Shown: positions 16,467 through 26,025 of the stretch, in pieces
How positions within the stretch are numbered: the first letter of the stretch is position 1
Layout: every line of letters begins with the position of its first letter
From: a virus
Lineage: Duplodnaviria; Caudoviricetes
Virus record (IMG/VR): IMGVR_UViG_3300017651_000007
Location: 1 to 26,025 of that record
Length of the DNA: 26,025 nt
Reading direction: 5' to 3' (one strand)
Notes under the pieces: model-generated
The model's database searches: none
Told to the model about the DNA's origin: nothing
What the model saw: only the letters and a program-made list of their open reading frames with translations
Position numbers and translations under genes: made by a program

Positions 16467-16539
16467 TGGCTCTAGCAGGACTCGAACCTGCGACCTTTCC
16501 GTTATGAGCGGACTGCGCTACCAACTGCGCCATAGAGCC
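16467..16539 (-). tRNA. tRNA-Met or tRNA-Ile2 (CAT)
   Basis: Acceptor GGCTCTA/TAGAGCC; loop CT-CAT-AA; TTCGAGT T-loop. Confidence 0.9.
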
Positions 16540-16544
16540 AAGAG

Positions 16545-16615
16545 AGGGGATGACGGGGCTCGAACCCGCGCCAGAAGCTTGGAAGGCTTCTGTGCTACCG
16601 CTACACCACATCCCC
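16545..16615 (-). tRNA. tRNA-Gly(TCC)
   Basis: GGGGATG/CATCCCC; loop CT-TCC-AA; U73. Confidence 0.92.
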
Positions 16616-16620
16616 GTGGT

Positions 16621-16824
16621 TCAGGTGAAGATACGGACGATCTGTTCGTGAGTGGCGCCGTGCTCGAAGTAACGACGCACGTCATGGTGGCTCAAGCGGA
16701 AACCATCCGTACCGCGAGCCTCAATCAGCTTCTCGGCATCCGTCTCCGAGAATCCAAGCGAAAGAAATGCTTCCTTCCGCCAGGCGGCGATCCTATCGCC
16801 GTTGAGATCTGTCGTACCTGCCAT
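16621..16824 (-). CDS. Hypothetical helical 67-aa protein
   Basis: Fills the gap between two tRNAs exactly; natural composition. Confidence 0.65.
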   Translation of the reverse strand: MAGTTDLNGDRIAAWRKEAFLSLGFSETDAEKLIEARGTDGFRLSHHDVRRYFEHGATHEQIVRIFT

Positions 16825-16828
16825 GGTA

Positions 16829-16900
16829 AGCTCCCTGTCGGAATCGAACCGACTTCTCAGGATTACAAGTCCAGTGCATCGCCTGCAATGCTTAGGGAGC
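16829..16900 (-). tRNA. tRNA-Thr(TGT)
   Basis: GCTCCCT/AGGGAGC; loop CT-TGT-AA. Confidence 0.88.
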
Positions 16901-16904
16901 AGAT

Positions 16905-16932
16905 GCTCCCTCGCCTATTGGGGCGAGGGAGC
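16905..16932 (-). terminator. Strong hairpin after the endolysin (terminator or 3'-end stabiliser)
   Basis: GCTCCCTCGCC-6 nt-GGCGAGGGAGC, 11 bp; no T-run. Confidence 0.5.
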
Positions 16933-16938
16933 GAGGTC

Positions 16939-17619
16939 TTATCCCGGGTAATCGACCAGGGCGAACCCGTACACGTCAGAGAGCGGGCGCTTGCGGGCGT
17001 ATACGCCTCCGCCGTTGCTCTGCGAGCCGCTGTTGCCCGACGAGGTGTTACCCTCGATTGTGTGAACGTAGTTGCCCTCAACCTTGACGACCATTCCGAC
17101 GTGAACGCCGGAACCGAAGAGCACGACGAGATCACCGCGTAGCACCTTCTTCGGATCCGTGGTCCAGCCTCGATACGGAGCGAGCTTGCGCTTCGCGTCC
17201 TGCTCGATGTAGTACACGGAGGCAATGCGGTAATCGACGCCCTTGACGCCGACATGGAGCAGCATGTTGCCGCAGAAGACGCCGCACCATGCCTGGCCTA
17301 CTAGCCAGGAACCTAGGCGCTCCTGCCATACCGTGATCCGGCCGCCCTTGTTCGAGTTCGCCGGGGTCTCCTTGACCTTGCCGTCGAAGCTCAGGGCGTA
17401 CTCGACAGCGCGCTGGCGAACGGGCTTCTTCGACTTGGCGCGGATCTGCGCGTCGCGGCGATCGACAAGACCAGCCGCTTCCTTGTAGAGCCGGAACCAC
17501 TTCGAGCGGAGGGCGTGTCCCTCCGGCTTAGTCTTGACGTAGCCGCGCCACTTCTTGTAACGATAGGACTCCCTACGCTTCCATAGAGCGCGCGACGCCT
17601 TTAGTGCTGAGAGAGTCAT
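16939..17619 (-). CDS. CHAP-domain endolysin or peptidoglycan amidase
   Basis: AWCGVF (catalytic Cys), GDLVV, HVGMV (His) and TIEGNT; very basic N-terminal helix. Confidence 0.88.
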   Translation of the reverse strand: MTLSALKASRALWKRRESYRYKKWRGYVKTKPEGHALRSKWFRLYKEAAGLVDRRDAQIRAKSKKPVRQRAVEYALSFDGKVKETPANSNKGGRITVWQERLGSWLVGQAWCGVFCGNMLLHVGVKGVDYRIASVYYIEQDAKRKLAPYRGWTTDPKKVLRGDLVVLFGSGVHVGMVVKVEGNYVHTIEGNTSSGNSGSQSNGGGVYARKRPLSDVYGFALVDYPG

Positions 17620-17656
17620 GTCACTCGTTACTTGGGCGACATGACGAGAAAGAAGG

Positions 17657-17944
17657 CCACACCCAATAGCCGGGATTTCGTATTAGCCGACCATCCGTCT
17701 CTGTCTCATGTCCTGAGACATGGGACAGGCCACGCCTTTACGCGGTGGCTGCCCTCAACCTAGACGGAGACGACTACCGTCCGAACGAGGTTGCATCCCT
17801 TCCCTAACGGCCGAGGTACGAACGAGCCGTAGCGAAACGCTACGTCTCTCCCTCCATTGTTACCCGGGCTCGCCAGTGTCGTCGGCGCGGGATGTCCCGA
17901 ACTTCCTCAAGAGTCGCGCGACTCCTGCGGTCGGCTAGGTGTGA
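17657..17944 (-). ncRNA. rnpB: RNase P RNA, compact type-A-like
   Basis: CR-I GAGGAAGUUCGGGA, CR-IV AGACGGAUG and CR-V ACGAAAUCCCGGCUAU. P1, P2, P3, the P4 pseudoknot, P5, the P6 pseudoknot, P7, P15 and P16 all pair in canonical order. Confidence 0.9.
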
Positions 17945-18072
17945 ACATCCTTGATAGCTTCCTTCCAGCACGTCATGCAGAGAAGGGCCTCGAAGAGGGA
18001 TGAGAAGAACGCTGGCCGCTGGTCGCAGCCGTAGCAGGCCGGTAGGCCGTTGCAGTCACCCTTCAGGGTCAT
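17935..18072 (-). CDS. Small CxxC...CxxC protein (45 aa)
   Basis: GGAGG close to the ATG at 18072; CYGC...CMTC; 3' end overlaps RNase P helix P1. Confidence 0.45.
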   Translation of the reverse strand: MTLKGDCNGLPACYGCDQRPAFFSSLFEALLCMTCWKEAIKDVHT

Positions 18073-18092
18073 GATCCTCCATCCGTTGATGA

Positions 18093-18165
18093 AGCCCACG
18101 CGGGGAGTCGAGCCCCGGACCTCTCCCTTACGAGGGGAGCGCTCTTCCATCTGAGCTACGCGGGC
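18093..18165 (-). tRNA. tRNA-Thr(CGT)
   Basis: GCCCGCG/CGTGGGC; loop CT-CGT-AA; variant T-loop CTCGACT. Confidence 0.88.
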
Positions 18166-18168
18166 AAG

Positions 18169-18289
18169 AGAGGCGAGTCGTGCGGAACAACACGCCTCTG
18201 GACGGTCCCTACCAGTACTTCCTTCGGGTACCTAACTGACGCTTTACCTACTGTCTCGTACGCGACTCCGCATTCAGGGGCGTCAGCTA
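18169..18289 (-). ncRNA. Candidate structured spacer RNA with loop-loop pairing
   Basis: TAGCTGACGC/GCGTCAGTTA stem and AGAGGCG/CGCCTCT hairpin; GCGGA/TCCGC complementarity between the two loops. Confidence 0.5.
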
Positions 18290-18362
18290 AGCCGTCAGCG
18301 GGAGTTGAACCCGCGACCCCTTCCTTACCACGGAAGTGCTCTGGCCACTGAGCTATGACGGC
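18290..18362 (-). tRNA. tRNA-Thr(GGT)
   Basis: GCCGTCA/TGACGGC; loop GT-GGT-AA. Confidence 0.9.
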
Positions 18363-18481
18363 GAGAGGCGCCCGGTAATGAACGGACGCCTGGTGATGCA
18401 GGTGCAGGGCGCCCGGCGGAAAGCGGGCGCCAGATCCAACTAGTTGCGCCAACCCATGCTGCACCTCCTCTACTCGAAGTA

Positions 18482-18553
18482 AGGGGCATACGGGAATCGA
18501 ACCCGTGTTTGCGACATGGCAAGCCGCCGTAATATCCGCTATACGAATGCCCC
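18482..18553 (-). tRNA. tRNA-Gly(GCC)
   Basis: GGGGCAT/ATGCCCC; loop TT-GCC-AT; U73. Confidence 0.88.
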
Positions 18554-18695
18554 AAACGCCTCAAACCAAGGGCCGAGGCGAGTGTCTATCCAGGGAGTTC
18601 CCATCCATCCCACCCTGGCCTACCGGCGTCACCCGGCTCCCTAACCACCAGCTACTAGACGTAGTAGACGACTACGGATTTCACTGGAGTCTTTG

Positions 18696-18890
18696 TCACC
18701 GCAAGGCGAATCGTCCAACTGACGCGAGGTCGAGACAGACGATGCACTGCTCGGCCTCACTCGGAGGCGGTACGCGCTTCGAGATCTTTGCCCCACAGAG
18801 AGCGTGATCGTCAGAGCCGCGTATATGCTTGACTCGTGCCCGAGTCGGAGTTTGGGACTCCTGCGGAGCCTCTAGTAGGACGGTGCTCAT
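18696..18890 (-). CDS. Small Zn-binding protein, DUF3039-like
   Basis: H...ALCG...CxxC spacing and MSTxxLE start resemble actinobacterial DUF3039 proteins. Confidence 0.55.
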   Translation of the reverse strand: MSTVLLEAPQESQTPTRARVKHIRGSDDHALCGAKISKRVPPPSEAEQCIVCLDLASVGRFALR

Positions 18891-18892
18891 AG

Positions 18893-18966
18893 CGCCCCCG
18901 GAGGGATTCGAACCCCCGACCTTGCGGGCCGAAACCGCACGCTCTAATCCGCTGAGCTACAAGGGC
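18893..18966 (-). tRNA. tRNA-Arg(TCG)
   Basis: Stem TGCGG/CCGCA; loop TT-TCG-GC. Confidence 0.9.
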
Positions 18967-19029
18967 TGGTACGCGTCGGGAGCGACCCTGACGCCGTGCA
19001 TGCGCTACGTCCACGGCTCGACGCGTAAG

Positions 19030-19101
19030 TACCCCCGGCAGGATTCGAACCTGCGACCTCCGGTACCGCAAACCGGTGCTCTTCCGCTGAGCTACAAGGG
19101 C
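19030..19101 (-). tRNA. tRNA-Arg(GCG)
   Basis: Stem CCGGT/ACCGG; loop TT-GCG-GT. Confidence 0.88.
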
Positions 19102-19150
19102 ATACAGGTGAACGTCCGTCGCCGGGCGCCACCTGAGGTAAGGGGTCCTG

Positions 19151-19750
19151 CTACTGGTCGAAGCGTCCTTCTAGCCAGTCCTTCACGAGACGAGCCTCGT
19201 ATACCGAGTCATCGCCCTCGGCGAGCAAATCGATGATCGCCGGATGCTCACGACGAAGCTGCTCTAGAAGACGAGATGCGTTTGTCCGTTCCTCGCGCGT
19301 AAGGTACTTTACGATCGAGACGTTTGGCGAGTCTCTATTATGGAGGTCACGGTGACAGTTGATACACACCGGAATAGTGCACTGAGACCGGGCGCCGACC
19401 TTAACGTAGTTGGATAGTTCGCGCATCATCCAACGGTTGACATAGTGGTGCCGTGTGGAGTCACCGGGTCGGCCGCAGAGGCGACACTCGGGCTGAACTT
19501 GTCTCTGTGCTCTGTACACCTTCTGGCGTTCAGCGACCTCGGCCGGTGTGGCGCCTTGGTCTAGAGCGTCGCGCAGCGCCTCTACGATCTGGCCCTGCGT
19601 GATGTGAGCGTCCAGCAAGTCATCTAGCTCAACACCTGTTATGGTGGTGAGAAGCTCCAACTGCTCGTGAGTGGCGAGGCGTCCGTTCTTGCCGGTGTCG
19701 TACCACCACTGCTCTCCATCAGGGAGAGTGATCTGTCGTGCTCGTGACAT
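19151..19750 (-). CDS. HNH-like (His-Me finger) endonuclease domain protein
   Basis: CRLC...TRHH...PVCINCHRDLH. Start at MSRARQ with a GAGAGG RBS; the longer ORF start lies inside tRNA-Glu. Confidence 0.7.
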   Translation of the reverse strand: MSRARQITLPDGEQWWYDTGKNGRLATHEQLELLTTITGVELDDLLDAHITQGQIVEALRDALDQGATPAEVAERQKVYRAQRQVQPECRLCGRPGDSTRHHYVNRWMMRELSNYVKVGARSQCTIPVCINCHRDLHNRDSPNVSIVKYLTREERTNASRLLEQLRREHPAIIDLLAEGDDSVYEARLVKDWLEGRFDQ

Positions 19751-19767
19751 GTGACCTCTCTCAGTAG

Positions 19768-19840
19768 TAGCCGGTACGGGATTCGAACCCGTGTCACCGC
19801 CTTGAGAGGGCGGCATCCTAGGCCCCTAGAAGAACCGGCC
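19768..19840 (-). tRNA. tRNA-Glu(CTC)
   Basis: GGCCGGT/ACCGGCT; loop CT-CTC-AA. Confidence 0.9.
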
Positions 19841-19849
19841 AGGGGAAGG

Positions 19850-19922
19850 GGTGACCAGAGGGAATCGAACCCTCCTCGCCGGACTCACAACCCGGAGTAA
19901 TAGCCGCTATACGATGGCCACC
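19850..19922 (-). tRNA. tRNA-His(GTG)
   Basis: Encoded G-1 opposite C73; loop TT-GTG-AG. Confidence 0.88.
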
Positions 19923-19937
19923 ATGTGTACTGCGTAG

Positions 19938-20010
19938 CTGCGGGCCAAGGTTTCGAACCTCGCTCTCCGGGGCCAGAACCCGGCGTCCACACCAACAGGA
20001 CCAACCCGCA
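19938..20010 (-). tRNA. tRNA-Gln(CTG)
   Basis: U1-A72; loop TT-CTG-GC. Confidence 0.88.
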
Positions 20011-20099
20011 AGGGAAGGAAGGCCAGCTATTGTCCGCTTAGCGTCCAGCGTCGCAATGCGCTCGTCCCCCGTGCACAGGGTTAGGACGACCTTCCGAAG

Positions 20100-20170
20100 T
20101 TGCGGGACTCGGATTCGAACCGAGACCAACGGGGTCAAAGCCCGTTCACCTGCCTTTAGTGTATCCCGCA
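20100..20170 (-). tRNA. tRNA-Gln(TTG)
   Basis: TGCGGGA/TCCCGCA; loop CT-TTG-AC. Confidence 0.85.
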
Positions 20171-20176
20171 ATGTGA

Positions 20177-20198
20177 GACGGGCGCCGAAGCGCCCGTC
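20177..20198 (-). terminator. UUCG-capped hairpin after nadV
   Basis: GACGGGCGC-TTCG-GCGCCCGTC, 9 bp; no T-run. Confidence 0.55.
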
Positions 20199-20201
20199 GT
20201 A

Positions 20202-21587
20202 CTACAGCGCTGCGTTACGACGTACTGTGTCGAAGTCCACCTCGTTGAGGAGGACGCCGTTCTCGAACACCGTGACTAGCTCGTCAGGGAGACCGGTGTC
20301 TCCGCCGACGGTGCGATATCCGTTCTCATCCTTGACCAACGCCAGGCGCCCGCGCTTCGACGCCTTGGAGGTGTCAAGGGGCTTCTTGTAGACCTGGTGC
20401 CATGCCCCGTCGCGCTCCTGCGCGCTGCACTTGAAGGCGAAGCGCTGCATGTCGCGATTGACCTTCTGGTGCAGACCGCCGCCCATGCCGAAGACCATGT
20501 TCTCGGCGCTGAAGCCCTCGGCCGCCAGACGACCGAGGATGCGGACGATGCCGTGAGAGTCGATGCCGTCGCCCCAAAGCACGCGAACGTGCGGGTCGAG
20601 TACCTTGAAGCCCTTGGAGTTGACCGCGCCGCCGAACGACTCGTAGAGTCGTCGCACGATCCACAGGGTCAGGCCCTCGGGCGTCTCGTGGTTCGGCGTA
20701 GTGGAGTCCGGACGCACGACGAATACGCCGTCGCGATCGAGGACTTGCTTGCGGTACGTCGTGCAGATGGCATCCACGAAGCGGTAGATGTCGTAGCTGT
20801 CGGCGACGACGGAGAGGATCCCGGTCGGGTGCTCGCGGAAGAGCTTGTCCACGACCTTCCATTCGCCCTCCTCGCCGAGGGCCGTCATCACGGAGTGCTC
20901 GGTGGCGGGCACCGAGAAGGCGAGACTCGTGATGTCGGCGCCGTAGTGGTTCACGGCGAAGAGCATCCCGAGGAGGGTATCCGTGCCCACCGAGTTCACG
21001 AGGTGTGCCGCTCCGGCAATGGAGGCAGACTCGTCGCTCGTGGAGCCTCGGTAGCCGAAGTCGTGGAGCATGAAGGGTAGGCCGTCGCGGCTGTCGGCCG
21101 TCATGTCAAGGAAGGCCCCGATCGAGTCGATGGTATGACGGCTGAGCGTCGCCACCGTACTCGGGTACCACACGTGCGTCAGGAGCGACTCCACGGCGTT
21201 GGTTAGCCAGTAGCATTCCGGACAGGTGTTCTCGACGGTCATCAAGACGTTGCCGGTCGGGACGACCGTGCCCTCCTGGACCGCCTTGATGCGCAGCGGC
21301 AGACAGCCGCCGTGCACGTCGATGATGTGGTTCCAACCGGCCGCGTTGAAGAGGCTTTCGTCGCCGAAGTGGTACTTTGCGACCAGCGCGGCCTCGGTCA
21401 CGTCGGCGGGGGTCACGACGACGCCTTCGAGCTTGCGAAGGATGGGCTGTAGGCCGAAGAACACGGTGTAGGGGAACTCGGCCCCCGTACGGCTCTCGAA
21501 GTAGGAGTAGACGCCGGTCGTGTCGTCCGGGTACTGCTTCCAGTGGTTGAGCTTGTAGCTGTCCGTCGCGAGGATGAGATTGGTCAT
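20202..21587 (-). CDS. nadV: Nicotinamide phosphoribosyltransferase (NAMPT)
   Basis: Motifs TDSYK.NH..QYP, WYPSTVAT, LHDFGYRG, VPATEHSVMT, SVVADSYD, RPDS and GMGGGL. Confidence 0.96.
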   Translation of the reverse strand: MTNLILATDSYKLNHWKQYPDDTTGVYSYFESRTGAEFPYTVFFGLQPILRKLEGVVVTPADVTEAALVAKYHFGDESLFNAAGWNHIIDVHGGCLPLRIKAVQEGTVVPTGNVLMTVENTCPECYWLTNAVESLLTHVWYPSTVATLSRHTIDSIGAFLDMTADSRDGLPFMLHDFGYRGSTSDESASIAGAAHLVNSVGTDTLLGMLFAVNHYGADITSLAFSVPATEHSVMTALGEEGEWKVVDKLFREHPTGILSVVADSYDIYRFVDAICTTYRKQVLDRDGVFVVRPDSTTPNHETPEGLTLWIVRRLYESFGGAVNSKGFKVLDPHVRVLWGDGIDSHGIVRILGRLAAEGFSAENMVFGMGGGLHQKVNRDMQRFAFKCSAQERDGAWHQVYKKPLDTSKASKRGRLALVKDENGYRTVGGDTGLPDELVTVFENGVLLNEVDFDTVRRNAAL

Positions 21588-22489
21588 CCGAGGAGCCTCC
21601 CACGAAGATAGACGAATAGTTCCTGGTGGACAGGGACAAGGGAGTCTTCCGCCAGCGCGTGCCAGTCGAACCAGCGAAGCTCGGCTATGTCAGATCCCGG
21701 CGTGGGCTTGCCGCTCAGGTGCGTAGCCAGGAAGAGCATCGTCTTGATCTTGTCCACCTCGCCCCGATAGCGCCAGTCATCCACGAGCATGGACGTGACG
21801 TACTTCGGATCGGTGATCTCGATGCCCGCCTCCTCCATCACCTCTCGGCGGGCGTCGGCCTCGTAAGTCGGCGACGTGGGCTCGGCGAAGCCGCCGATGA
21901 AGCGGAACTTATCCTCGTAGGGCTTGCGGCCGAGCAGCAGCTTCGACCCGTCCTCGTTGAGGATGGCCACATCGACGGTTGCATAGTTCGTCGGGAAGCG
22001 GCTGTAGGCGGCCCAGACGACGCCAGCGCGGAACTCGGGCGACGCCTTGACGGAGCGGGCGGAGATAGCCTTGCGCGTCTCCGAGCCGGAGACGAAGACC
22101 TCCTGGACAAGCTCCCGTGTGGGAAGGTTGCCGTGATAGCGACGGATGAACGAGTCGCGGCTGCCGTAGAGGACGACCGACTGCGCGGGCGTCGTCACAT
22201 CAGCGATCATCTCGTCCAGCCGCTTACTCCAAGCCACGTCGCTGGGGTGATCCTTCACGTAGAGAACGTTCACGTCGGGGAAGCGCTCCAGGATCATCTG
22301 CTTGCGCGCTTCGAAGTCGAGCGGATTCTCTCGCGTGACCATGACAGGCGAGAGCCCCAGGAAGAGGATCACCTTGCTGTGTGCATCACAGACGGTCCGG
22401 ATCAGGTCAATATGAGCCTGATGTAGCTCAGGGACCTGGAACCGACCGACAATCACTCCTACGTCGTAGGAGTCGGTCTTTACCTGCAT
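21584..22489 (-). CDS. natV: Bifunctional NMN adenylyltransferase / Nudix ADP-ribose hydrolase
   Basis: GRFQ..LHQAH (HxxH), NPL.F..R, SGSETR, and the Nudix box GGF-x9-ARREVMEEAG; ATGA overlap with nadV. Confidence 0.93.
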   Translation of the reverse strand: MQVKTDSYDVGVIVGRFQVPELHQAHIDLIRTVCDAHSKVILFLGLSPVMVTRENPLDFEARKQMILERFPDVNVLYVKDHPSDVAWSKRLDEMIADVTTPAQSVVLYGSRDSFIRRYHGNLPTRELVQEVFVSGSETRKAISARSVKASPEFRAGVVWAAYSRFPTNYATVDVAILNEDGSKLLLGRKPYEDKFRFIGGFAEPTSPTYEADARREVMEEAGIEITDPKYVTSMLVDDWRYRGEVDKIKTMLFLATHLSGKPTPGSDIAELRWFDWHALAEDSLVPVHQELFVYLRGRLLG

Positions 22490-22537
22490 GTATCTCCTTG
22501 CGATCTATCGATAAACGATCATGGGGGATGGGGGATA

Positions 22538-22617
22538 TAGCGGAGGTAGGATTCGAACCGTTTGAGACGACCTCCTGGTTATGAGCCAGGCGAGCTACCA
22601 GACTGCTCTACTCCGCG
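22538..22617 (-). tRNA. Initiator-like tRNA-Met(CAT) with an insertion in the T-stem
   Basis: CGCGGAG start, unpaired C1:U72, loop CT-CAT-AA; about 6 extra nt in the T-stem 5' strand. Confidence 0.8.
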
Positions 22618-22624
22618 TCGAAAG

Positions 22625-22706
22625 TGCCCACACTCGGACTCGAACCGAGACGGCGTAAGCCAACCGGGTTTGAGCCGGTCCTGTCTGCCAATTCCAGCAT
22701 GTAGGC
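22625..22706 (-). tRNA. tRNA-Leu(CAA)
   Basis: Class II variable arm; loop CT-CAA-AC. Confidence 0.92.
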
Positions 22707-22714
22707 GAAGTGAA

Positions 22715-22927
22715 TGAGAGCGCGGCCCTGGCTAAGGGGCATTACGGCGGGCGTCCACCCGATACATCCCGTGGCCTGCGGGACAACGGGCAACTACTGT
22801 CCGCCTTTTCTACGGGTTCAACCTTGAGCCCTCTAGCGCGCCGCCGTCTATTGCTTGGCTTGCCAAAGCCGAGCATCACCGGGCCTAGCAGCCTAGAGTC
22901 GGCCGTCGAAACCACCTCGTGCTCTCA
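22715..22927 (-). ncRNA. Candidate 213-nt multi-domain structured RNA
   Basis: Closing stem TGAGAGC/GCTCTCA, several internal helices and a potential pseudoknot; no convincing ORF. Confidence 0.6.
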
Positions 22928-22929
22928 AG

Positions 22930-23001
22930 TGCCGCCAAGGGGGATCGAACCCCTACTTCCAGCTTGAAAGGCTAGCGTGCTAACCACTACACTATGACGG
23001 C
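22930..23001 (-). tRNA. tRNA-Glu(TTC)
   Basis: GCCGTCA/TGGCGGC; loop CT-TTC-AA. Confidence 0.9.
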
Positions 23002-23137
23002 AGGGCGGGCGTAACCTCGATTGTTGGTTACCTTACGTCCGTCCCAGCTTAGACGGAACCCTCGCGAGGCTCGGGTACCCACGGTAGAGACAAGAACTCC
23101 AACGCCTACGTTCCTCTACCGCCTTCTACCTCGCTAG

Positions 23138-23212
23138 TGGTGCCACGAGGATTTGAACCTCGGACCTCCTCCGTATCAGAGAGGCGCTCTAACCAGACTG
23201 AGCTATGACACC
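23138..23212 (-). tRNA. tRNA-Ile(GAT)
   Basis: GGTGTCA/TGGCACC; loop CT-GAT-AC. Confidence 0.88.
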
Positions 23213-23309
23213 CTGGCGCCGGTATGGTCCTAGGAACCTCAATGGGCTAGACCAGCGCAACAGCCCCTCAGCGCGCATCCGGCCGGAATGGGCGCCTCAA
23301 CTTAGGGAG

Positions 23310-23383
23310 TGGGGAGTAGCGGATTCGAACCGCTGACCTTCGGTGTTTCAAGCCGACGCTCTACCAGGCTGAGCTAACTCCCC
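23310..23383 (-). tRNA. tRNA-Phe(GAA)
   Basis: GGGGAGT/ACTCCCC; loop TT-GAA-AC; C31:A39 mismatch. Confidence 0.85.
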
Positions 23384-23471
23384 GGGATCAGGTCAAGGGG
23401 ACCCTCTTCGTGAGGTGATGGGACATTCCCGGACCGCCACGCGTGCTCGCGACCCAAATCATGACCTGAAG

Positions 23472-23543
23472 TGGAGGACCGGGGAATCGAACCCCGAATT
23501 CCGCCTTGCAAGGGCGGCGTGTTCCCGTTAGCACTAGTCCCCC
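23472..23543 (-). tRNA. tRNA-Ala(TGC)
   Basis: G3:U70; loop CT-TGC-AA. Confidence 0.92.
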
Positions 23544-23599
23544 GGGCCGGGGCCGCCCGACGGCGGCCCCTCATACTCCTTCCGCCGATGGCGGATGAG

Positions 23600-23956
23600 C
23601 TAGAACTGCACCTCCCGCTTAGGGAGGACCCTATTTCTGCCCTCCCGCCAGAGGCGGCGAGGCAGCCACTTCTTCTTGACCTTCCAGCAGTGAATGCAGG
23701 TACGCACGCGGTAGGTGTCCGTGAACGTTACTCCATTCCACTCGGAAGTCTCCGAGATAGTCTCGGTGTACCACTCGTGAACGCGGTTGATCGCGCAGCG
23801 CTCCTTCTGTACGCGCTTGCGCTTCGAGCGACGCTTCCCGTTAGAAGGAGCGTCGTCGTCAACGGGCGGAGCCTTCTCAGGCGTGGCAATGGGACAGCAG
23901 CCGCAGGGAGCCATCTTCCTCTTGTCCCGGCGACGCGACCGGCGCTTGTAATGCAA
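23600..23956 (-). CDS. Highly basic Cys/His-containing protein (118 aa)
   Basis: AGGAG RBS before a TTG start; C..H...CxxC; fills the inter-tRNA gap and is followed by hairpins. Confidence 0.6.
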   Translation of the reverse strand: MHYKRRSRRRDKRKMAPCGCCPIATPEKAPPVDDDAPSNGKRRSKRKRVQKERCAINRVHEWYTETISETSEWNGVTFTDTYRVRTCIHCWKVKKKWLPRRLWREGRNRVLPKREVQF

Positions 23957-24018
23957 AGCAAGTCTCCTGTGTCAGGTTACCTACATTGCATGGCGCTCCT
24001 TTCGTCTGTGACCGACAG

Positions 24019-24106
24019 CGGAGAGACAGGGATTCGAACCCTGGGAGCCCTCATCGAGCCCACACGCGTTCCAGGCGTGCCCGTTCAACCACTCCGGCAC
24101 CTCTCC
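24019..24106 (-). tRNA. tRNA-Ser(GGA)
   Basis: Long variable arm; loop CT-GGA-AC; G73. Confidence 0.92.
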
Positions 24107-24193
24107 GAGCTAGCGTGGCGACTACCTACCTCTTGGACTAGAGGCGCAGGAGTTTGAGGCTTCGCCGCCTGCTTGCGTCTTGACCACGCTAAG

Positions 24194-24277
24194 CGGAGGC
24201 AGAGGGAATCGAACCCCCGACGCCGTTAGGCGCAGCCGGGTTCAAACCGGTGTCCTCGTCCATGCCGGACTACCTCC
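24194..24277 (-). tRNA. tRNA-Ser(TGA)
   Basis: Variable arm; loop TT-TGA-AC; G73. Confidence 0.88.
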
Positions 24278-24280
24278 GTA

Positions 24281-24352
24281 AGGCCCGAGCCGGAATCGAA
24301 CCGGCGTAAACCGCTTTGCAGGCGGTTGGCTAAGCCATTCACCCATCGGGCC
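24281..24352 (-). tRNA. tRNA-Cys(GCA)
   Basis: GGCCCGA/TCGGGCC; loop CT-GCA-AA; U73. Confidence 0.92.
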
Positions 24353-24355
24353 GGG

Positions 24356-24614
24356 TGCGAGACGAGGGATTCCACCCTCAACCCCTGAGTAGCGCGCGGG
24401 CGCACTTTCGGTCTGAAATGTCCGCCGCTACTCCTGAGAACCGTCCTCAAGCCGCTAAGCCGCACACGCTGGCTCCAGGCCGCTAAGCCCTTCGCCCATC
24501 CCTCGGCGCCCAGGTTGCTAACCCTGCCTCGGGACTTCTGGCTGTGCCGGGGTCCAGGACACCCGTTGGACGTGCGTTAGAGGCTTGCGCTACCTCTTAT
24601 TCCGCCAGTCTCAT
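24356..24614 (-). ncRNA. Candidate 259-nt tRNA-mimic RNA with a giant variable-region insertion
   Basis: Acceptor-like ATGAGAC/GTCTCGC-A, Leu-type D-arm TG-GCG-GAAT...AA-CGC, T-arm-like GAGGG-TGGAAT-CCCTC, and many internal hairpins. Confidence 0.6.
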
Positions 24615-24639
24615 AGGGACGATGGCCGTCGTCCCCAAG

Positions 24640-24712
24640 CTCCCCCGGTAGGATTCGAACCTACGACCTGTCGGTTAACAGCCGACCGCTCTGCGCACTG
24701 AGCTACAGGGGA
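24640..24712 (-). tRNA. tRNA-Asn(GTT)
   Basis: TCCCCTG/CGGGGGA; loop CT-GTT-AA; G73. Confidence 0.92.
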
Positions 24713-24788
24713 ATATGTGACGGCCCGTATCGTCGGCCGTCGCGCTGTATCCAGACGCCCCAGGTATATAGCTCTGAGGAACCGCTAG

Positions 24789-24863
24789 TGCCGCCCCAGG
24801 GATTCGAACCCTGAACCTCCCGATTAAGAGTCGGGTACTCTAATCCAATTGAGTTAGAGCGGC
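24789..24863 (-). tRNA. tRNA-Lys(CTT)
   Basis: GCCGCTC/GGGCGGC; loop CT-CTT-AA. Confidence 0.92.
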
Positions 24864-24869
24864 AGGATA

Positions 24870-25003
24870 ATCGCCCTTAGCGGGAACGAGAATCGGGCGA
24901 TCGGGTGGTCGGAGTCTTCTCGTTGGACCTAATGGCGCCTCAAGTCGAGAGCCCGCGACATCCTTGTCGTGAGGAGCTACCTCACGGTGGAGGACCAGTC
25001 CAC
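24870..25003 (-). ncRNA. Candidate pseudoknotted spacer RNA
   Basis: Three tandem hairpins, then a GCGGG/CCCGC domain whose internal hairpin loop (ATCGCCC) matches the 3' tail (GGGCGAT). Confidence 0.5.
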
Positions 25004-25006
25004 TAG

Positions 25007-25103
25007 CGGAAGGAGTGGGATTCGAACCCACGGACCAGCGGTCATTTAGCCGCCGACCTCTCGGTTAGCAACCGAGCGCATTCAGCCTCTCTGCCATCCT
25101 TCC
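25007..25103 (-). tRNA. tRNA-Ser(GCT)
   Basis: 97 nt with an extra-long variable arm; loop TT-GCT-AA. Confidence 0.92.
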
Positions 25104-25105
25104 AG

Positions 25106-25177
25106 CGCCCCCGGGAGGAATCGAACCTCCATCTCCCGCTTAGGAGGCGGATGCTCTATCCATTGAGCTACGAGGGC
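25106..25177 (-). tRNA. tRNA-Arg(CCT)
   Basis: GCCCTCG/CGGGGGC; loop CT-CCT-AA. Confidence 0.92.
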
Positions 25178-25268
25178 AAGCGGGGACTTTCACCCCGAAT
25201 CGGTGGCGTTCACCCGTACGGCCGCCTCTTGGCGATCCTCCGGCTCCCCATCGGGAGCGATGTAGTAG

Positions 25269-25706
25269 TGGAGGTGGCGGGAATCGAACCCGCGTCTTCC
25301 GTGCGCCTATCCAGGCAGTTCTCTAGCAGCTTGCCTCGTAAGGCCGAGGGCGCCCACCCCTTGTTACGAAGGGTGATTCCGGGCCGTCTTTCCAGCCTGT
25401 CTTGCACAACTAAGGGGACGGACAAGCTCCGAAACGCCTGTCGTCTTTCCACCACCCGAGTTCTGCGTCGTTCCCAGGAGGCACTCGGGAGCGCCGGGTT
25501 CGACCACGTATTCTGTTGCCCCGTTACGTGAGACGGCGCGCAGGATTACTAAGCCAGCGCGAGGTCGCGAGAAGCCGCCTCAGCAAGAATTGCCTCGGCC
25601 TCCGCGACGGGATCATACGTGCCAGTTATTGGCTTTGCCAGGTCAGGTGTGGCGACCGCTGCACTGCTCGGGACCGCTTCTCACAGAATCGAAGCCGGAC
25701 ACCCCC
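25269..25706 (-). ncRNA. ssrA: tmRNA
   Basis: 5' GGGGGTGTCCGGCTTCGA; 3' GACGCGGGTTCGATTCCCGCCACCTCCA; G3:U70; resume context ATAACT-GGC; tag frame ends LALA-TAG-TAA. Confidence 0.93.
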
Positions 25707-25824
25707 ATGTGAGGCAGCTACATCCCCGGCGAGGGGACCGCTTACCTCGTTTGATAGGGCTAGACCACGCGCTTCCCACCCCGGTTGGTTACGGGCCAAA
25801 GCCTTGTCCGTCTGCCTATCAAAG

Positions 25825-25898
25825 TGCGCCTTGAGGGAGTCGAGCCCCCGACCTCTCGCATGTCACGCGAGCGCTCTAACCACCTGAGCTAAAGGCGC
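25825..25898 (-). tRNA. tRNA-Val(GAC)
   Basis: GCGCCTT/AAGGCGC; loop GT-GAC-AT; variant T-loop CTCGACT. Confidence 0.9.
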
Positions 25899-25907
25899 AA
25901 GATTTGA

Positions 25908-25990
25908 ACCGCCCGGACCTCGTTCGTCTAGTGGTCCGAATTGGCGAGTCGCTGCCACGACTCTTTACGCCTCTGGCAGGAGGCGGCGAT
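25908..25990 (-). ncRNA. Candidate kissing-loop RNA
   Basis: Two 6-bp hairpins with exactly complementary 6-nt loops (CTGCCA and TGGCAG), a third hairpin, and a closing stem. Confidence 0.6.
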
Positions 25991-25994
25991 GCAG

Positions 25995-26025
25995 TGGGCG
26001 TCGAGGGGCTCGAACCCCCGACCTC
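25995..26025 (-). tRNA. 3' part of a tRNA (identity outside the window)
   Basis: GAGGTC-GGGGG-TTCGAGC-CCCTC-GACGCCC-A. Confidence 0.85.

Follow-up and report, generated by a model that had tools for sequence, protein, structure and literature searches.

Organization of the tRNA array

The DNA considered here, hereafter the window, is the whole 26,025-nucleotide stretch of IMG/VR record IMGVR_UViG_3300017651_000007, a 26-kb virus record that is about 16% complete. Its genes include those for a terminase, a portal protein and an endolysin-like protein. The terminase shares 32–33% identity with those of Rhodococcus phage E3 and large mycobacteriophages, and the window represents part of the genome of a Bxz1/E3-like phage. 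On its minus strand, from 16467 to 26025, lies an array of 26 transfer RNA (tRNA) genes and one transfer-messenger RNA (tmRNA) gene, with part of one more tRNA gene at the contig end. An original prediction held that the spacers of this array are discrete structured RNAs, released together with small mRNAs by cuts at the tRNA ends; these spacers are the subject of the present analysis.

In calling the genes, ARAGORN missed tRNA-Ser(GCT) (25007–25103) and the tmRNA, both of which were recovered by Rfam. None of the 25 scored window tRNAs encodes CCA, and C-U follows the discriminator base in 18. Other records with a largely equal tRNA order were found via NAMPT, the terminase, an RNA motif and a conserved array gene. 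The closest of them, G001, has a terminase 87% identical to that of the window. The conserved array gene is also present, at 82%, in a prophage of a contig titled Candidatus Solirubrobacter pratensis, which suggests that the host is probably a soil bacterium of the Solirubrobacterales. Comparison of positions 22500–26025 with GenBank phages gave tRNA matches only, three single elements searched singly gave nothing meaningful, and an Rfam scan of the window spacers, at E up to 10, returned no match.

Registration of spacer stems with tRNA ends

The exact positions of stems relative to the tRNA ends had been put forward as the real signal in the spacers, and this was borne out by counts in excess of dinucleotide shuffles, in the window and clade-wide. 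All seven stems proposed to open a spacer were found 0–4 nt past the discriminator, behind tRNA-Thr(GGT) (18289), Arg(GCG) (19027), Gln(TTG) (20095), Glu(TTC) (22927), Ala (23469), Ser(TGA) (24191) and Val (25822–3), and all 13 listed for the other side end 3–6 nt short of the next gene. The window set consisted of 16 spacers of 63–339 nt. A stem starts at most 5 nt from the tRNA 3′ end in 10 of them, versus 5.2 expected (P = 0.012), and a stem ends at most 6 nt before the next 5′ end in 12, versus 5.9 expected (P = 0.002). When the terminal bases were held fixed, the 12 spacers of up to 200 nt gave 8 versus 3.7 on the 3′-end side and 11 versus 4.8 at the next 5′ end. Just 5 of the 16 spacers have a single stem pairing one end with the other, the remainder having separate end hairpins. 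Folding stability against the same kind of shuffles, which had been suggested as a check, was modest (mean z of −1.25, below −2 in 4 of 16 spacers).

The clade set comprised 161 spacers of 40–200 nt from 16 related arrays; here, and in the set from other phages, spacers adjoining doubtful tRNA or permuted-tmRNA calls were excluded. Registration was found at the start in 85 spacers (versus 43), at the end in 95 (versus 48) and at both ends in 60 (versus 15). With a single member kept for each of 21 families, both ends were registered in 10 cases versus 2.5, so that kinship is not the driver of registration.

An RNase P RNA gene within the array

The RNase P acting on the array had been thought to be perhaps the phage's own. 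Judging by motifs, homologues and covariation, the 288 nt at 17657–17944, between tRNA-Thr(CGT) and the endolysin-like gene, are a phage RNase P RNA gene, whose product would be expected to cleave pre-tRNA leaders. This segment contains helices P1–P5 and P15, the catalytic-domain motifs in order, and a short specificity domain. In an alignment of 17 sequences, the 31 pairs of P2, P3, P4, P5 and P15 are 91% paired and 23 of them show compensatory changes, a result reached in none of 500 shuffles; the structure used for this comparison was taken from the window copy, a choice that gives it an advantage over slid controls. The P4 pseudoknot with its bulged base has 8 pairs, which are formed in 100% of cells in 17/17 sequences, 4 of them with compensatory changes. 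Helices P2, P3, P5 and P15 are 81–94% paired, again with compensatory changes, and the junction motifs occur in order; P1 was read for the window and G005 only.

Homologues at the same position scored 38.6–56.9 bits with RF00010 (E from 1e-8 to 1e-18), short of the 100-bit cut-off, and both strands of their P4 deviate in sequence from the Rfam consensus. The specificity domain is reduced, the P5 strands enclosing about 90 nt in the window and fewer in L047, L057, L064 and L151. In G005 the RNase P RNA fills the whole Gly>Thr slot, and its P1 is separated from the two flanking tRNAs by 0 and 3 nt; here a known kind of RNA has a register equal to that of the spacers. A first pattern scan for such RNAs gave 16 matches, of which 8 were judged real, 2 of these records being already in the set. 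A second gave 105 matches, among which the 18 accompanied by tRNAs or by the upstream motif were kept and the others dropped. Some homologues, of about 200–220 nt, belong to other, mostly AT-rich phages (L064, L116, L130, L151, L047), and in some the bulged U of P4 is replaced by C. The specificity domain is interrupted by long insertions in L007:12950-13441 and in L110, where the insert resembles an HNH gene. A phage-encoded RNase P RNA was not found in the portions of the literature at hand, mainly open-access main texts (PMC11143913, PMC8172020, PMC7162821, PMC11406994).

Conserved RNAs in the spacers

The spacers had been described as unrelated in sequence and mostly non-coding. They are unrelated inside the window; across phages many are related, and some turn out to be coding. 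Of 253 spacers in the clade, 109 fall into families with members in more than one genome, and several of these families change slots (coding and promoter-like pieces are counted in). Relatives were found for five of the 16 window spacers: a probable manA-like RNA, a four-helix RNA, two smaller folds and one small gene.

The probable manA-like RNA lies in the Asn>Cys slot. In G003, G004 and G005 this slot matches RF01745 (manA) with 40.2, 40.9 and 51.4 bits, below the cut-off of 55.2, and in L021 the manA consensus helices and motifs are present in order. A model made from the G003, G004 and G005 copies alone gave its two best whole-window matches in the window Asn>Cys spacer, where they are partial, collinear and weak (E 0.34 and 0.96). 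It is probable from these comparisons that the window spacer (24359–24637) is an enlarged manA-like RNA, made of a 5′ hairpin (24614–24637) and a core (24359–24612) with a closing stem of 5 bp. The manA-like copies are followed by tRNA-Cys in 4/4 cases, and are not the 5′ untranslated region of a protein gene. Two guesses about this RNA, group I intron P4-P5 and signal recognition particle RNA, were dropped when the manA match replaced them.

The four-helix RNA, which ends in a 3′ T-loop hairpin, occupies the spacer between tmRNA and tRNA-Arg (25178–25265). It matches a spacer of a different slot in L054 (nhmmer E 3.5e-9), with compensatory changes in 6 of 27 pairs. Further members in slots of L007 (25.6 bits) and L134 (17.6 bits) have the 5′ motif and the T-loop in common, and the family thus has members in four different tRNA slots. 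The model, run on five near-complete relatives, found the L054 record only; an exact-pattern scan for the core gave 7 matches, of which only L054 was relevant, and no new members. This RNA has no Rfam match, and no literature search was aimed at it. The same tmRNA>Arg slot holds a different conserved RNA in L030:1627-1770 and L134:1334-1467.

The Ala>Phe spacer (23388–23469) is closed end to end and is found in the same slot in G001 (nhmmer E 0.01–0.02), with a conserved inner stem-loop and compensatory changes in 5 of 13 pairs. An exact-pattern scan for its loop returned 6 matches, G001 alone inside an array, and no new members. The idea that it is a Y RNA found no support and was dropped; the best match to YrlA (RF02553, 69 bits needed) reached 19 bits and overlapped tRNAs, and no Ro60 family was present among the window proteins scanned, relatives not being searched. 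The other small fold, a hairpin pair with conserved loops (18589–18649), forms the 3′ part of the Arg(TCG)>Gly spacer and has a relative in the Arg(GCG)>Lys spacer of L183, a different slot (nhmmer E 0.0014).

Relatives hold further spacers of this kind. Between tRNA-Arg(TCT) and tRNA-Tyr, an array part outside the window, six of them share a strongly conserved, apparently pseudoknotted RNA of 150–200 nt (L030:389-533, L021:2628-2881, L054:1113-1292, L178:1893-2088, L180:3071-3293, L181:179-375), without Rfam match in the two loci scanned. A conserved spacer RNA of about 146 nt precedes the last tRNA-Met in six relatives (L054:11250-11396, L125, L178, L180, L183, G004). Four spacers (L178:8897-8982, L180:8944-9043, L181:10752-10834, L183:10916-11094) are tRNA-shaped with an aberrant T arm, and are possibly tRNA mimics or decayed tRNAs.

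Genes flush behind tRNAs, processing enzymes and promoters

Small mRNAs had been counted among the products of the array. An ATG located 1–4 nt after the discriminator opens at least 40 codons in 19 of 231 clade spacers (at least 120 nt), versus a mean of 2 after shuffling (maximum 8 in 200) and 1–8 in graft controls. A −10 box was seen for one of these 19 flush genes and a Shine-Dalgarno-like word inside the tRNA stem for three, and 7 of the 18 tested had a PHROGs match. The window contributes two of the 19. The first is a conserved gene of 67 codons (16621–16824), whose ATG lies 4 nt after tRNA-Thr(TGT) in the spacer leading to tRNA-Gly, and which has relatives in G001, L134, L110 and L112. 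The other, a 64-codon open reading frame (ORF; 18696–18890), has its ATG 2 nt after tRNA-Arg(TCG), and no homologue, ribosome-binding site or −10 box was found for it. Actinobacteria translate leaderless mRNAs. Because there is no room for a ribosome-binding site, the arrangement suggests that a cut at the tRNA 3′ end, yielding a near-leaderless mRNA, would be the simplest route to translation.

Statements on enzyme genes rest on relatives, the window record being partial. A tRNA nucleotidyltransferase domain is present in all four near-complete relatives, at the end of a protein of 1110–1534 aa (three were read out). In these three (L190:3067-6399, L191:3927-8531, L192:2211-5702) the CCA-adding enzyme is fused behind 670–1050 residues with almost no known family, apart from weak YunG and zinc-finger matches; Atlas gave no usable lead for this N-terminal part (0.78). 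Neither an RNase Z nor an RnpA gene was found in the same four phages. A Solirubrobacter genome contains an RNase Z-like gene (292.3 versus 292.95 bits) and RnpA.

Promoters were scanned for as consensus words only, from which phage-specific promoters may differ: the region has one promoter-like site on the sense strand, at chance level, and the array strand of the window has 0 extended −10 words.

Other features along the array

All genes described here are on the minus strand, and the array is followed from its upstream side. At the contig end, the 3′ half of a truncated tRNA gene (25991–26025) was read directly from its T arm and acceptor 3′ strand; the array extends upstream of it. A multi-hairpin spacer for which a relative was not found (25899–25990) then precedes tRNA-Val(GAC) (25825–25898), and an orphan spacer with two end-registered stems (25707–25824) leads to the tmRNA (25266–25706; RF00023, 47.3 bits versus a cut-off of 47). 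The predicted tag of the tmRNA, ending in ...SRDLALA, is unusually long, at about 24 residues; those of G001 and G004 are likewise long. Beyond the four-helix RNA come tRNA-Arg(CCT) (25106–25177, an Rfam call like that of the adjoining tRNA-Ser(GCT)), the orphan Ser(GCT)>Lys spacer (24864–25006), tRNA-Lys(CTT) (24789–24863), another orphan (24713–24788) and tRNA-Asn (24640–24712).

The manA-like RNA is followed by tRNA-Cys (24281–24352), tRNA-Ser(TGA) (24194–24277), an orphan spacer closed end to end by 9 bp (24107–24193) and tRNA-Ser(GGA) (24019–24106). An ORF of 118 codons (23600–23956), with an uncertain start and no family found, is next, and a hairpin 5 nt before tRNA-Ala(TGC) (23472–23543). 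The segment 22538–23383 contains tRNA-Phe, Ile, Glu(TTC), Leu(CAA) and Met with three orphan spacers (23213–23309, 23002–23137, 22707–22929); in tRNA-Met(CAT) (22538–22617) the variable region is enlarged. An NAD salvage pair is inserted at 20202–22489, consisting of a NadM-type cytidyltransferase/Nudix gene (21584–22489) and a NAMPT gene (20202–21587), after which a 9-bp hairpin ends 6 nt before tRNA-Gln(TTG). The pair is missing at that position in G001 and occupies other slots in relatives.

Then follow tRNA-Gln(TTG), an orphan end-to-end spacer (20010–20099), tRNA-Gln(CTG), His and Glu(CTC) (together 19768–20170), and a gene for an HNH-like protein of 199 aa (19151–19750), 40–82% identical in 8 arrays and 38–82% across the clade, for which Atlas suggested PF01844 (0.91). 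This gene stays in the same slot clade-wide, in contrast to a typical mobile endonuclease. The interval 18893–19101 holds tRNA-Arg(GCG), an orphan end-to-end spacer (18967–19029) and tRNA-Arg(TCG), and the interval 18093–18553 holds tRNA-Gly(GCC), Thr(GGT) and Thr(CGT) with two orphans (18363–18481, z −2.3; 18166–18289, z −2.0). Downstream of the RNase P RNA, the endolysin-like gene (16939–17619) has a weak CHAP match, and an 11-bp hairpin ends 4 nt before tRNA-Thr(TGT) (16829–16900). The array ends with tRNA-Gly(TCC) and tRNA-Met (16467–16615).

Interpretation of the array and its alternatives

With moderate confidence, and on the basis of sequence comparison, we read the array as an RNA cassette operon of a large actinobacterial phage, in which the tRNAs would punctuate a swappable cargo of RNAs and mRNAs. 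The tRNA genes would be its conserved backbone, and the slots between them would be filled, emptied and refilled with self-contained cargo, namely structured non-coding RNAs (ncRNAs) and small genes. The array would probably be read as one or a few long transcripts. RNase P, built on the phage RNA and needing a host protein subunit, would cut at every tRNA 5′ end and thereby set the 3′ end of the preceding cargo. An endonucleolytic cut at or just past the discriminator, probably by host RNase Z, would set the cargo 5′ end, and the CCA-less tRNAs would be completed by the phage CCA-adding enzyme, whose genes are seen in relatives. Cargo would be selected for folding on itself with 0–5 and 3–6 nt of unpaired ends, which would keep both cut sites open, let the tRNAs fold and leave the released piece shielded. 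The products would be tRNAs, tmRNA, several ncRNAs (among them the manA-like and four-helix RNAs) and near-leaderless mRNAs. Three new items stand out as the strongest: the hidden RNase P RNA, the slot-changing four-helix RNA and the clade-wide statistics.

Several observations weigh against this reading. For 11 of the 16 window spacers a relative was not found among 28 further arrays and 6 added later. In G001, 10 of the 16 slots hold at most 20 nt, three hold unrelated sequence and one is not scorable. The original claim of discrete structured RNAs is supported in that several spacers are conserved folded RNAs; for the orphans, insulation of the tRNAs is an equally good explanation. Together with the families in changing slots, the near-empty slots indicate a cargo that is, by comparison of the genomes, dispensable and exchangeable. 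The window Asn>Cys copy, longer than its relatives, has no Rfam match, nor does the window RNase P RNA give any match to RF00010 (cut-off 100 bits). The latter is also not flush with a tRNA: it overlaps a Cys-rich ORF of 45 codons (17935–18072), whose stop codon is inside P1, and is followed by a U-rich terminator-like site. The four-helix model matched two coding regions at 23–31 bits in 151 genomes of the likely host class, and both were rejected. Because the L007 and L134 members score no higher than these false matches, their proposed membership is carried by position and motifs, not by score.

Registration itself is also seen elsewhere, as a weaker trend of the same kind, in 46 spacers from 15 unrelated phage arrays (14 versus 9, 19 versus 12, and 10 versus 3.5 for both ends). 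In the clade, the 113 singleton spacers are registered like family members (both ends, 42 versus 10). Registration is real, yet has by itself no power to tell RNA genes from insulators, because orphans are as end-registered as conserved spacers. It is accordingly possible, although we think it rather unlikely as an account of the whole array, that the end stems only keep inserts from disturbing tRNA folding and leave leaders and trailers unpaired for cutting by RNase P and RNase Z, in which case released spacers would be degraded and the few conserved RNAs would be passengers. The full registration of orphans and the slots that can be empty are expected on such insulation, and RNase P contacts leader positions −8 to −1 (PMC11143913, in the part available), which would fit it. 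Among 13 tRNA-spacer-tRNA trios, the real spacer pairs with the tRNAs less than every shuffle in 8 and less than the shuffled mean in 10; 3 are no better insulated than that mean. Insulation leaves unexplained the conserved loops, the T-loops, the compensatory changes, the presence of the same RNA in four slots and the flush start codons. Orphan stems may only be insulating tRNAs, and the chances that the 11 orphan spacers function as free RNAs are about even. Probably both the cargo and the insulation readings hold, for different spacers.

It is improbable that the array consists of many small transcription units, with a promoter for each cargo piece and hairpins acting as terminators or leader structures. 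Such units would account for the terminator-like site after the RNase P RNA, and manA is described as probably cis-regulatory (PMC2864571, as far as its text was available). Promoter-like words are also present inside the arrays of some relatives, with 9–16 extended −10-like words per array in three AT-richer ones. Against this, the hairpins ending 3–6 nt before tRNA starts leave no room for promoters, the window array strand lacks extended −10 words, the manA-like copies have no protein gene downstream, and 18 of the 19 flush genes have no −10 box. Very improbable is a selfish origin of the cargo, as relics of mobile elements targeting tRNA ends or as self-cleaving RNAs trimming tRNA trailers like theta ribozymes: gain and loss are fast, HNH genes lie flush behind tRNAs in L054 and L099, and RNase P RNA copies of G004 and L110 carry insertions, but Rfam ribozymes gave no match in the window spacers, a self-made descriptor of the hepatitis delta virus (HDV)-like fold, used without positive control, hit 0 of 27 window tRNA/tmRNA ends, and none of the non-coding spacers contained any of the short ribozyme core motifs tried.

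A bolder form of the cassette reading is doubtful, though conceivable. The array would then be a largely self-supplied RNA-maturation operon, in which a reduced RNase P ribozyme and a giant CCA-adding fusion cut and finish the transcript. The tRNAs would serve everywhere as processing signals, any slot could take up a leaderless gene or a member of one of dozens of unrelated ncRNA families, and most spacers, orphans too, would be functional free RNAs, such as protein decoys, tRNA-elbow mimics and a cage-forming manA.

If the cassette reading is true, tRNA punctuation is not restricted to organelles, and a bacterial virus would mass-produce small RNAs and leaderless mRNAs via tRNA cut marks. 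The slots between phage tRNA genes would then be a rich source of unannotated RNA families, manA-type RNAs could be free-standing products, and a reduced RNase P ribozyme would lie beside its natural substrates, where it can be tested. The prophage relative in a named Solirubrobacter genome makes the idea directly testable.

Comparison with known systems

Bacterial Y RNAs are structured RNAs beside tRNAs like those considered here, and differ in that YrlA, as noted, scored far below its cut-off and on the tRNAs themselves (PMC4201824, in part). Theta ribozymes are likewise structured RNAs lying directly behind tRNAs or co-transcribed with them (PMC10879173, in the portion at hand), whereas their HDV-like fold was not found at the window tRNA ends. 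In the L021 RNA, the 5′ hairpin, the closing stem, the conserved internal loop and the terminal hairpin follow one another as they do in the manA motif (RF01745). For marine phages and Photobacterium, manA has been interpreted as an element with a likely cis-regulatory role (PMC2864571, PMC9964418, both in excerpt), and a preprint (10.64898/2026.07.01.735769) reports manA cages, with tRNA not mentioned in its main text as available to us. In contrast, the copies considered here measure 240–290 nt versus about 190, have tRNA-Asn on one side and tRNA-Cys on the other, without a protein gene downstream, and belong to an actinobacterial phage and not to a cyanophage or Photobacterium.

Bacterial type A RNase P RNA (RF00010; diverged forms of the Candidate Phyla Radiation, PMC8172020, in its accessible part) shares with the window gene helices P1–P5 and P15, the bulged P4 pseudoknot, the catalytic-domain motifs and GGU in the P15 loop. 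The phage copy differs in being viral, in its length of 288 nt (about 200 nt in some homologues), in its short specificity domain, in scoring below the Rfam cut-off and in that a phage RnpA was not found.

In phage T4, RNAC and RNAD lie within the tRNA cluster. They are stable RNAs of unknown function that accompany polycistronic, partly CCA-less pre-tRNAs cut by RNase P, and the phage is described as dependent on the host RNase P (PMC9697503, PMC11143913, in the passages available). T4 has two such RNAs. In the array described here the slots are numerous, families are exchangeable, genes lie flush behind tRNAs and an RNase P RNA is encoded by the phage.

On the long transcript of mitochondria, tRNAs stand between the other RNAs, the tRNA genes lack CCA, and start codons lie a few bases past tRNA ends. 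The present array is alike in having tRNAs between other RNAs, CCA-less tRNAs and start codons near tRNA ends. Unlike the mitochondrial case, it belongs to a bacterial virus, its cargo is small, structured and exchangeable, its processing is one that we infer, and an RNase P RNA lies inside the array itself.

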